From contig CAVPSB010000002.1 of the NCBI GenBank assembly GCA_963708025.1, positions 32,001 to 96,000 of the forward strand: DNA of 64,000 bases. Direction: 5' to 3'. The DNA is from an uncultured Candidatus Rokubacteria bacterium (lineage in GTDB: Bacteria; Methylomirabilota; Methylomirabilia; Rokubacteriales; DASRDR01). The notes below the pieces were generated by a model, which ran no database searches, was not told where the DNA came from, and saw only the letters and a list, made by a program, of their open reading frames with translations. Numbering within the stretch: position 1 is the first letter of the stretch; each line of letters starts with the position of its first letter. Positions 3,697 through 20,613 of this stretch are shown here, in pieces. The position numbers and the translations under genes are program-made.

Positions 3697-4002
3697 ATGG
3701 CAACCGCCACCAAAACCAAGCTTCGTCCGCTCCATGACCGCATTCTCATCAAGCGCGTCGAGGAAGAGGAAGTCCGACGCGGCGGCATCATCATCCCGGA
3801 CACCGCGAAGGAGAAGCCCCAGGAGGGCAAGGTGATCGCGGTCGGCACCGGCAAGGTGACCGAGGACGGCAAGAAGATCCCGCTCGACGTCAAGGCGGGC
3901 GATCGGATCCTGTTCGGGAAGTATTCCGGCAGCGAGGTCAAGATCGACGACGAGGAGTACCTCATCCTGCGGGAAGAGGACGTCCTCGGCATCCTCGACT
4001 GA
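3697..4002 (+). CDS. groES: Co-chaperonin GroES
   Basis: [12 protein letters not shown]...[28 protein letters not shown] before ATG 3697. Confidence 0.98.
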
Positions 4003-19251: not shown

Positions 19252-19620
19252 ATGACGTTCATCCGCGAGGTCGGCGACGACGAGCTCCGGCGCGAGAAGG
19301 CGAAGGCGCGCGAGCTGCGCCAGAGCCCGTGGTGGAAGCGACGGCTGGCCGCCGGGCGGTGCGCCTACTGCGACCGGCCGACCCCTTCGCGCGAGCTGAC
19401 GATGGACCACCGCGTCCCCCTCGTGCGGGGCGGCCGCTCGACGAAGGGCAACGTGGTGCCGGCCTGCAAGGCGTGCAACACGGCCAAGAAGTACCTCTTG
19501 CCGATCGAGTGGGAGGCGTACATCGCGCGGCTTGCCGACCCGGCGGAGTCGGAGGAGCACCCGCCGTCATTGCCCGTGCGAAAAGAATTGGACAAGCGAG
19601 CGGAGCCGGATTTAGGATGA
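19252..19620 (+). CDS. Stand-alone HNH endonuclease
   Basis: CAYC...LTMDHRVPLVRGGRSTKGNVVPACKACN. Confidence 0.9.
   Translation: MTFIREVGDDELRREKAKARELRQSPWWKRRLAAGRCAYCDRPTPSRELTMDHRVPLVRGGRSTKGNVVPACKACNTAKKYLLPIEWEAYIARLADPAESEEHPPSLPVRKELDKRAEPDLG
19589..19618 (+). promoter_or_regulatory. Putative sigma70 promoter inside the HNH 3' end
   Basis: TGGACA, N18, TAGGAT, preceded by an A-rich tract. Confidence 0.5.
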
Positions 19621-19624
19621 GACA

Positions 19625-19975
19625 AATCGATCGGGGGTCACACAGCCCCCTGGCGCGCCGATCCTGGCAGTGGAGCCGGGCGGGGCGGATCGAGCCGCGG
19701 GCCGGGAGTCGGCGGCCGGCCGGCGGTGGCGGGATCGTGGGCCCGCGTGGTGCGTGCGCCGAGAAAGGAGGTGGTCCAGCCGTGTGTACAACCCCGGTGA
19801 TTTTCTGTGAGGTGGTGACCTCCTAGGTCGCGCGCACCCGGTTCCATCTGAGGGTGGCCCGCCTGGGAGGATCCCCAGGCACCACCGGCCCCGAGGGTCC
19901 TGCACTTCACCTGCAGGGCGGCCCGAGCCTCCGACAGCGAGGTGGGTCGCAGACGCCCTCGGGGCTCCCTTTTTG
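19625..19975 (+). ncRNA. Putative structured RNA/sORF transcript with extended complementarity to 16S rRNA
   Basis: AGAAAGGAGGTGGTCCAGCCG-TGTGTACAA (19762-19791), several hairpins, and a closing stem gccccgaggg/ccctcggggc followed by T5. Confidence 0.55.
19782..19826 (+). CDS. Possible 14-aa sORF MCTTPVIFCEVVTS (alternative: GTG 19784, MYNPGDFL)
   Basis: GTG lies 10 nt after GGAGG of the extended SD. Confidence 0.3.
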   Translation: MCTTPVIFCEVVTS

Positions 19976-20054
19976 CGGAGATCCCGGTCCCGGATCCTGG
20001 GAACTCACGCCCGCCGGCTTCTGGCAATCCTCTGACTCTGGCCGCCCTGGCGTT

Positions 20055-20131
20055 CCACTTCGAGCCGCGGCTTCGCCGCGGCCTGCGCGGGGGGGCCTCG
20101 GGGTCTTCCCAGACCCCCCCGAAGATCCTAG
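20055..20131 (-). repeat. Repeat family B copy (starts at a CTAG stop)
   Basis: CTAG-gatcttcgggggggtctgggaagaccccgaggccccccc...ccgcggcgaagccgcggctcg; similar to 31744-31822 and 44284-44368. Confidence 0.75.
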
Positions 20132-20613
20132 TTGAGCATTCCGACCAGGCGGTGGAGCTCGGCGCGGGCGGGGCGGTAGTCGGGTTCGATGTCGAGAGCC
20201 TGCCGCAGCTCGGCGATCGCCTCGTGGACCTTGCCCTGCTTGGCGTAGACGCGGGCCAGGTTCACGTGTGGGTAGTGGCGCGGCTCGTAGCGGGAGGCGG
20301 CCATCGCCTTCTGGAGCCAGGGGATGGCGTCCTGGTGGCGGCCGAGCTTGATGAGATAGGAGCCGATGTCGTTGTAGGGGTTGCCGAAGTCCGGATCGAT
20401 ACGGATCGCGGTGCAGCACTCGCGGATCGCCGCCTCGAGATCGCCGTTGAAGCTGTAGGTCCAGCCGAGGAAGGTGTGGGCCTCGGCGGTCGGCAGGCAC
20501 TCGATGGACTTCCGGTAACCGGCGATCGCGCTCTCGAGGTCCCCTCTCATCTGGGCCTCGTACGCCGCCTCGAAGTACCGCTGGGCCTGGTCGCGCGCGC
20601 TCGCCTCGTCCAT
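20128..20613 (-). CDS. Tetratricopeptide repeat protein
   Basis: TPR helices: PTAEAHTFLGWTYS, DPDFGNPYNDIGSYLI. Confidence 0.85.
   Translation of the reverse strand: MDEASARDQAQRYFEAAYEAQMRGDLESAIAGYRKSIECLPTAEAHTFLGWTYSFNGDLEAAIRECCTAIRIDPDFGNPYNDIGSYLIKLGRHQDAIPWLQKAMAASRYEPRHYPHVNLARVYAKQGKVHEAIAELRQALDIEPDYRPARAELHRLVGMLN

Follow-up and report, generated by a model that had tools for sequence, protein, structure and literature searches.

The DNA analysed here (the window) is a stretch of 64,000 nucleotides (nt) from an uncultured Candidatus Rokubacteria bacterium of the phylum Methylomirabilota (GenBank assembly GCA_963708025.1, contig CAVPSB010000002.1, positions 32,001 to 96,000), and about 350 nt of it form a conserved RNA gene. 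Its plus strand carries a Shine-Dalgarno (SD) sequence that can pair with the extreme 3' end of the genome's own 16S rRNA and that runs into the start codon of a small open reading frame (sORF), all within a fold shared by related genomes. We consider that the locus is probably an rre-type gene, that is, a small ribosome-regulated mRNA, embedded in a larger structured RNA. It represents the long form within a broad class of unexplained function, of which the alpha-proteobacterial genes rreB and rreR have been published; we infer that the RNAs described by the Rfam families Ms_IGR-5 and CC2171 belong to it too.

Both 16S genes of the genome terminate in ...GCGGCTGGATCACCTCCTTTCT, and the plus strand at 19762-19782 reads AGAAAGGAGGTGGTCCAGCCG, which, save for one A>G change, equals the reverse complement of the 21 bases that end each gene. 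An earlier note on this DNA had predicted such pairing from the common bacterial 16S end; against the genome's own two genes the duplex of 20 Watson-Crick pairs and one G-U pair is confirmed (21 nt, 95.2%, E = 2.8e-05 in a comparison with the 1.6 kb 16S). The 15-mer AAGGAGGTGRTCCAG has three exact sites in the 8.17 Mb genome, namely this locus and the antisense of the two 16S genes, and the 12-mer AGGAGGTGRTCC is not rare, with 15 genome sites vs 19 for its reversed control. For the first two bases of the 21-mer, pairing is assumed, because the mature 3' end of the 16S is not established: the Rfam model alignment ends in ...CCTCCTTT, and the next genomic bases are CT. The SD duplex has a predicted energy of -21.2 kcal/mol when the 16S contributes its last 13 nt and of -39.8 kcal/mol when it contributes 21 nt; AGGAGG alone gives -9.2 kcal/mol.

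A DNA search with positions 19740-19980 as query against 41 related genomes of five families detected the element in 38 of them (37 of 40 without the unpublished genome G038), and the three genomes without a match are 70-88% complete. Most genomes have one copy, and G006, G021 and G024 have two matches each. We took the copies of 37 relatives at order level, 20 loci from the DNA search and 17 by place. All 37 have GGAGGTGRTCCAG, 30 have the 17-mer AGGAGGTGRTCCAGCCG and 20 have the full 21-mer, so that the earlier note's remark on a complementarity far exceeding that of a normal SD holds and extends to the relatives. The 21-mer reaches into the 3' strand of helix 45, which is free only in immature or unfolded 16S, and the complementarity beyond CCAG is order-specific and overlaps the start-codon context and an internal helix of the RNA. 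The 16S tail is invariant; an assembled 16S 3' end was found in one of five genomes of the sister family searched and is identical to that of this genome. The RNA of the sister family differs in the 5' extension of the SD although its one assembled 16S 3' end is unchanged.

The earlier note had added a second 16S site and read the two together as a clamp on both flanks of helix 44. The letters of this second motif, GTGTGTACAA (19782-19791), do match 16S antisense, but at chance level (E = 0.42, with two other 10-mers scoring equally); it is kept in one of the 37 order-level relatives (TGTGTAC in 10) and falls within the variable N-terminal codons of the sORF. Its duplex energy of -25.2 kcal/mol, computed for this genome alone, is no evidence for pairing, and we rejected GTGTGTACAA as a second 16S site. 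The clamp is therefore unsupported. Two stretches matching 16S antisense could also point to a remnant of a 16S gene or to a chimeric assembly, an option that the earlier note had left standing. We rate its probability as practically nil: beyond the 21-mer there is no collinear 16S similarity and nothing above chance (the other matches are of 8-10 nt, scattered, with E >=0.42), and an element detected in 38 of 41 relatives, aligned with compensatory changes in 35 genomes and recovered in RNA-library contigs of three studies is no artefact of one assembly.

Of the roles considered in the earlier note, the fitting one is an sORF headed by an extremely strong SD. The predicted peptide is (M)CTTPVIFCEVVTS. 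In all 37 order-level copies an in-frame start codon lies 3-15 nt past GGAGG and a stop codon lies 18 nt after the first base (the T of TGT) of the block TGTGAGGTGG, vs 0 and 16 copies in the other frames. Ahead of this invariant spacing, the N-terminal half of the frame varies in sequence and, by whole codons, in length (3 nt, TTT, in this genome, a 3-nt insert in one genus and 6 nt in locus L031). In the sister family the start is an ATG one base further from the SD and the frame has 13 codons. Even within one family, position 3 of the peptide can be T, N, S, K or R. The block TGTGAGGTGG also includes a second SD-like motif, GAGGTG, 9 nt before the stop codon and 6 nt before the last sense codon, which may act as a second ribosome contact.

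A cross-lineage scan for GGAGGTGRTCC-N15-45-TGTGAGGTGG, with one genome per species, extended these findings. It returned at least 119 stretches, and its pattern fixes Cys-Glu-Val by construction, but not the frame, the start or the stop. In 116 of the 119 the frame of TGT begins with a start codon 3-15 nt past GGAGG and is open to the block, and the same 116 have a stop codon exactly 18 nt after TGT, vs 6 and 12 of the 119 in the other two frames. The three exceptions (L052, L056 and L071) look like chance matches inside genes. The 116 loci start with TTG (60), ATG (38) or GTG (18), end with TAG (99), TGA (12) or TAA (5), and encode 81 distinct peptides of 12-14 residues.

Such a frame could be a gene for a micropeptide of 12-15 residues, in which the peptide ending in CEVxxx acts as the effector, while the long SD and the structure of the RNA do no more than tune its synthesis. 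The preservation of frame, start and stop positions across phyla while codon identities vary, and length differences made of whole codons, are what this explanation predicts, and the RreB and RreR peptides are conserved within their own clades, according to Hahn et al. (2016, PMC5711450). We regard it as unlikely. Cys-Glu-Val is the sole invariant part of the peptide, and its codons are invariant at the wobble positions too, which argues for a constraint at the RNA level overlapping the coding one; the remainder is highly variable, and at least 250 non-coding, covarying nt would be superfluous for a 14-mer. In the same source the synthetic RreB and RreR peptides were unstructured, and putative overproduction of RreB gave no phenotype. 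Because the peptide is variable and the RNA motifs are invariant, a role centred on the RNA or the ribosome is more likely than a peptide effector.

The fold was derived from an alignment (A1) of 35 of the 37 relatives' copies; L026, cut by a contig end, and L043, with a large insertion, were left out. The insertion in L043 (G024:C401, about 2616-2710 of the locus) is of about 70 nt, stands right after the sORF and splits the copy into two BLAST pieces. RNAalifold predicted 84 pairs in 14 helices, with 96.9% of cells paired vs 33-51% when the partners were slid by 1-3 columns. Both sides have changed in 29 of the 84 pairs (5-15 in the slid controls), and none of 500 column shuffles reached any of five measures; the structure comes from the tested alignment itself, which favours the fold. 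G-U pairs fill 336 of 2938 pair cells (11%) and would be mismatches on the opposite strand; with promoter, T-run and sORF taken into account as well, they fix the plus strand. The earlier note's proposal of a structured plus-strand RNA with its own transcription is supported, and the multi-branched 3' structure that it described, closed by GGCCCCGAGGGT/GCCCTCGGGGCT and followed by T5, belongs to the covarying fold of the relatives. The features are listed in Table 1.

Table 1. Features of the RNA gene and its surroundings, in window coordinates
Feature	Position	Strand	Remarks
HNH gene	19252-19620	+	Pfam HNH, E = 6e-12
Sigma-70-like promoter	19589-19618	+	TGGACA-18-TAGGAT; 1 site, 0 expected in 50 shuffles
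Gene-free interval	19621-20127		Between the HNH gene and the convergent TPR gene
Whole RNA gene	19625-19975	+	About 350 nt, ends approximate; conserved AAATCG (19625) to T-run, 35 aligned relatives
5' domain	19627-19727	+	Helix 1 (19627-19632/19688-19693) around two hairpins, then helix 4 (19694-19706/19715-19727)
Helix 5, connecting	19731-19735 with 19833-19838	+	3 of 5 pairs changed on both sides; 88% of cells paired
Hairpin of helices 6/7	19738-19762	+	Immediately 5' of the SD
Extended SD	19762-19782	+	21 nt; its final base opens the GTG start codon
Helix 8, SD-sORF	19766-19781 with 19811-19824	+	13 pairs, 99.1% of cells paired
sORF	19782-19826	+	14 codons and stop (GTG...TAG); stop TAG 19824-19826
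Invariant TGTGAGGTGG	19806-19815	+	Cys-Glu-Val-G; invariant columns in A1
Hairpin of helices 9-11	19853-19886	+	GGTGG...CCACC; nearly invariant
3' three-way junction	19887-19974	+	Helix 12, GGCCCCGAGGGT/GCCCTCGGGGCT (19887-19898 with 19955-19966), enclosing helices 13 and 14; then CCC and T5
TPR gene	20128-20613	-	Convergent with the RNA

There are 13 pairs changed on both sides in helices 1-4 and 11 in helices 12-14, and the hairpin of helices 9-11 gives none because it is nearly invariant. In helix 8 the strand opposite the SD, 19811-19824 (GGTGGTGACCTCCT), is anti-SD-like and stands at the end of the sORF; the predicted internal duplex has -24.3 kcal/mol. The loop of the first hairpin of the 5' domain has an invariant ACACAG. 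This domain is present in Binatia, Thermodesulfobacteriota and other loci. The actinobacterial short form is without it, since those copies begin about 10 nt ahead of the SD, right after the promoter.

The actinobacterial copies are also without the CCTCCT strand; there, the 3' half of the SD has its pairing partner in the bases that immediately precede TGTGAGG. The elements' own partners average -7.9 vs -7.05 for swapped ones, a value reached by none of 500 permutations, in a test on 62 of 77 elements that were selected by a sequence criterion and with relatedness uncontrolled. Pairing of the last three codons with the SD in all forms was tried and rejected: among the 56 distinct SD/tail pairs (of 86) without a CCTCCT-like tail, the mean z is +0.65 and none is significant, and the z of -1.5 in the CCTCCT-tail subgroup is no test, because that subgroup is defined by the feature. 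As a common theme, the models place the 3' half of the SD and the start codon in a helix and leave the 5' end free, as predicted for rreB. A separate observation concerns the loop of the first hairpin (19634-19652), where CACAG is complementary to the CTGTG that opens the sORF block (19805-19810); in actinobacteria, the copies carry ACACA at the 5' end, and their block contains TGTG. A tertiary pairing of CACAG with CTGTG, both of them invariant, is possible.

The interval that holds the RNA lies between an HNH gene on the plus strand and a TPR gene on the minus strand and is free of genes, as the earlier note had it, and the sigma-70-like promoter proposed there stands up against shuffled sequences and is conserved: in the relatives' alignment it reads TTGGAC/TAGACA-N17-18-TAGGAT, with both hexamers kept. 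Conservation of the transcript starts about 6-9 nt after this promoter and extends to the T-run (T5 at 19970-19974, after CCC). A scan by a simple terminator rule found no site, because the T-run begins 4 bases past the branched stem; the 3' three-way junction with T5 is presumably the terminator.

An index of sequencing runs has 20 rows from 12 studies with part of this stretch, of which 13 are recorded as RNA. Contigs were aligned from four metatranscriptome runs of three studies (P1-P3). Those without any difference cover 19656-19784, 19755-19958 and 19874-19969 (P1), 19759-19957 (P2) and 19779-19942 (P3), and jointly span 19656-19969; further contigs bear substitutions and three-base changes known from the relatives. 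The RNA-library contigs terminate at 19957, 19958 and 19969. They show presence in RNA libraries, not strand, ends or level, and DNA may contaminate such libraries; the lack of contig cover on the flanking genes is no evidence. One contig of run X2 that starts at 19656 is preceded by Illumina adapter letters, and one of X1 starts at 19657. Position 19656 may be a fragment end or a processing site within the 5' domain, and is not a mapped 5' end.

A short reading frame followed by a terminator-like structure resembles an attenuator, and the structured 5' domain resembles an aptamer, so that the RNA might be a cis-acting leader (a leader peptide with attenuator, or a riboswitch) for a downstream gene. 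This is very improbable. The TPR gene that comes next (20128-20613) runs the other way, the flanking genes differ between the two main families (HNH vs an unrelated gene) and in mycobacteria, and no Rfam riboswitch matches. As to the neighbours themselves, the HNH gene encodes a stand-alone endonuclease of 122 amino acids and ends 5 nt ahead of the conserved start of the RNA; its C-terminal coding sequence precedes the RNA in many members of the window's family, and a different gene takes that place in the sister family. Right after the T-run, positions 20008-20127 hold an element some 120 nt long that contains two G+C-rich hairpins and of which at least 39 further copies occur on many contigs of the genome, in both strands and with 77-91% identity. 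It looks like an intergenic repeat of the REP/MITE type (repetitive extragenic palindrome/miniature inverted-repeat transposable element) and is outside the RNA.

Analysis of a wider sample makes it possible to follow the RNA through the phylum and beyond. The exact pattern of SD and TGTGAGGTGG occurs in 169 of 251 genomes of a phylum sample (165 of 247 without the unpublished G038, G074, G113 and G244), and in 82 of 104 high-quality genomes; the reversed control gave none. Families f7 (0 of 21), f13 (0 of 20) and f10 (0 of 6) gave no exact match, which does not establish absence, and a BLAST search with the whole RNA in five complete genomes of f6, f7 and f13 gave short weak matches only, with the same limit. 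Three matches to the 21-mer inspected in those families are the antisense of their 16S genes. One sister-family genome has two exact SD-sORF patterns in opposite orientation, 2.5 kb apart (G192:C9:872364-875000); apart from it, each listed genome row has at most one pattern match.

A profile built from A1 detected the full long form, including the 5' domain, in more contigs of Methylomirabilota/Rokubacteria and in contigs labelled Binatia (L124, 952 kb), delta-proteobacterium (L105), Thermodesulfobacteriota (L048) and Desulfuromonadales (L121); parts of it occur in L110, L078 and the Nitrospiria contig L083. Several taxon labels of metagenome-assembled genomes are doubtful because their sequences are nearly identical to Rokubacteria copies (L142, L144, L161 and L139) or to those of Mycobacterium (L119, labelled Gammaproteobacteria). 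The spread over phyla therefore rests on the divergent copies L124, L048, L083, L093, L105, L110, L121 and L078. About 3 kb from the element copy on the Terriglobia contig L093, positions 3720-3870 form a long hairpin with many sub-threshold matches to microRNA precursors, which is probably a mere inverted repeat.

Searched at the gathering thresholds of Rfam, the whole window gave no match. In E-value mode the best match on the element was RF02471 (Ms_IGR-5), with 20.6 bits (cut-off 45) and E = 0.021, and the model aligns end to end (1-184) on 19757-19974; RF01867 (CC2171) followed with 17.3 bits (cut-off 75) and E = 0.31. Both models open with GAAAGGAGGUG(A/G)UCC. When matches of the cross-lineage pattern were compared with Ms_IGR-5, six of six tested from actinobacteria were true members (62-176 bits) and none of eight from other lineages reached any cut-off; in E-value mode the model was full-length on five of these eight (41.3, 39.7, 35.7, 34.7 and 21.9 bits). 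Like the window RNA, Ms_IGR-5 has the SD GGAGGTGRTCC, the TGTGAGGTGG block with the stop 18 nt after TGT, and the 3' hairpin CACC..GGCCCCGAG...CTCGGGG. It differs in the absence of a 5' domain, in an sORF of 12 codons, and in the partner of the 3' half of the SD, which is formed by the codons just before TGTGAGG and not by a CCTCCT stretch. Ms_IGR-5 is reported to be expressed in Streptomyces, and its homologues to have ribosome footprints in two mycobacteria (PMC4974804).

The CC2171 model begins with GAAAGGAGGUGAUCCAGUG and thus likewise has a long SD abutting a GUG; its consensus, unlike the window RNA, is without the TGTGAGGTGG block. Judged from this consensus, CC2171 is probably the rre gene of Caulobacter. 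The family comprises an alpha-proteobacterial small RNA (sRNA), which a preprint reports as confirmed by Northern blot in Methylorubrum, with unknown condition dependence (bioRxiv 10.1101/2022.01.24.477521). In the literature covered, without subscription journals and supplements, we found no link between Ms_IGR-5 and an sORF, none between Ms_IGR-5 or CC2171 and rre genes, and nothing relevant on the mycobacterial locus, on the peptide tails or in follow-ups to rreB and rreR.

The earlier note knew of no named family that fits. For the actinobacterial relatives there is one, RF02471, and the architecture itself is shared by rreB and rreR. According to Hahn et al. (2016, PMC5711450), rreB of Bradyrhizobium is a 165-nt mRNA with its own promoter and terminator, a 17-nt complementarity to the 16S that includes the first base of GTG, and an sORF of 14 codons. 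Across rreB and rreR the complementarity is of 16-17 nt and ends on the first base of GTG, and the sORFs have 14-18 codons. The predicted helix of rreB encloses the start codon and the SD region except for its five 5'-most bases. Full-length rreB co-sediments with 30S subunits; its translation is weak, hindered by the SD extension and the GTG, and its half-life is lengthened when the start codon is replaced. The analogues (rreR and others) were found in alpha-proteobacteria only, with unrelated peptides and unconserved context.

The window RNA has the two sequence features of the rre genes in this account: a complementarity of at least 16 nt to the genome's own 16S end (here 21 nt, with the mature end assumed) upstream of an sORF, its last base (19782) being the first of GTG, and 14 codons. 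As in rreB, a predicted helix takes up the start codon and most of the SD and leaves about five 5' bases free, and the genomic context is unconserved between clades, as in the rre genes. It differs from rreB in size (about 350 vs 165 nt) and in the additional, covarying 5' domain of about 100 nt, and from the rre genes in the 21-nt complementarity and in a sORF that ends in CEVxxx-stop with an internal GAGGTG, a comparison that leaves the peptides aside. It also lies outside the alpha-proteobacteria, and 30S binding was measured for rreB, not for the window RNA.

These data also bear on a trans-acting ribosome regulator, the idea of the earlier note, which would titrate or park 30S subunits or act as a chaperone of the 16S 3' end in maturation or hibernation, with the sORF incidental or serving to clear the RNA. 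A pairing potential of -21 to -40 kcal/mol vs -9 for a canonical SD, an SD core kept in every relative, a complementarity that enters helix 45, the location of rreB on 30S subunits and contigs obtained from small RNA libraries are all in keeping with such a role. We nevertheless hold it to be distinctly unlikely, as a pure sponge needs no conserved frame and stop, the two-site clamp is refuted, and the complementarity beyond CCAG is order-specific and coincides with the start-codon context and an internal helix. The contigs give no abundance, and in Bradyrhizobium overproduction of the ribosome-binding RNA left growth unslowed, and the RNA is far less numerous than the ribosomes (PMC5711450).

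For an rre-type mRNA embedded in a larger RNA, a mechanism can be proposed by analogy with rreB. As measured for rreB, the over-long SD would make the RNA bind 30S subunits very tightly, the sORF would be translated weakly because the fully zipped duplex abuts its start codon, and turnover of the RNA would be governed by ribosome engagement at that codon. Beyond this analogy, AGAAA, the five free bases upstream of the paired part, could serve as a toehold for the 16S tail, which, once seeded there, would displace the internal anti-SD-like strand. With the free tail alone paired (to about 19776), the GTG would stand 5 nt downstream and be decodable; with the duplex zipped to 19782, the start codon would be abutted and blocked. 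Partial or full zipping would thus result in tight binding with weak translation. A terminating ribosome, with the stop codon in its A site, may re-pair its 16S tail with GAGGTG, and the ribosome would in this way be held at both ends of the sORF.

Several observations weigh against the rre-type interpretation and this mechanism. Helix 8, which would sequester the SD, is without covariation (0 of 13 pairs changed on both sides), and a composition-controlled shuffle of its distal half was non-significant, with 21 of 100 as low. The AGAAA toehold is unconserved, the sister family having ATAGGAGG, AATAGGAGG or AAAGGGAGG, and pairing past the free 16S tail requires the opening of helix 45. Binding to 30S subunits is carried over by analogy from the alpha-proteobacterial members, and the RNA-library contigs come without strand, ends or abundance and with no DNA control alongside. 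The 5' domain of 100 nt, missing in rreB and Ms_IGR-5, has no explained purpose. Finally, overexpression of rreB had no growth effect and its authors call the function elusive (PMC5711450), so that the model system itself is without a known function.

A bolder proposal, which we judge unlikely, unites the alpha-proteobacterial rre genes (CC2171), Ms_IGR-5 and the long form in one multi-phylum class of ribosome-clamping sORF RNAs. The ribosome would be held twice, at initiation by an SD that consumes the whole 16S tail and at termination by GAGGTG, which stands 6 nt ahead of the last sense codon. In this way the RNA would report on free, mature 30S subunits or buffer their pool, and the long form would have in its 5' domain a sensor, for a ligand or a protein, that gates access to the SD.

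In the literature covered, rre genes had been described once, from alpha-proteobacteria only, and their function is still called elusive; for Ms_IGR-5, both Rfam and transcriptome papers give an sRNA of actinobacteria without an assigned function. Our results suggest that the design, in which a maximal SD runs up to or into the start codon of a very short conserved frame, is far more widespread. By contig labels it reaches from Methylomirabilota/Rokubacteria to Actinomycetota, Binatia, Thermodesulfobacteriota, Nitrospiria and Terriglobia, and it also exists as a long form with added structured domains. For genome annotation, this means a conserved RNA gene that is undetected by Rfam 15. The collected loci, in which the RNA motifs are invariant and the stop position is fixed but the peptide varies, offer a comparative data set for the purpose of ribosome-bound mini-mRNAs, and members of the class are carried by tractable hosts, Streptomyces and Mycolicibacterium smegmatis.

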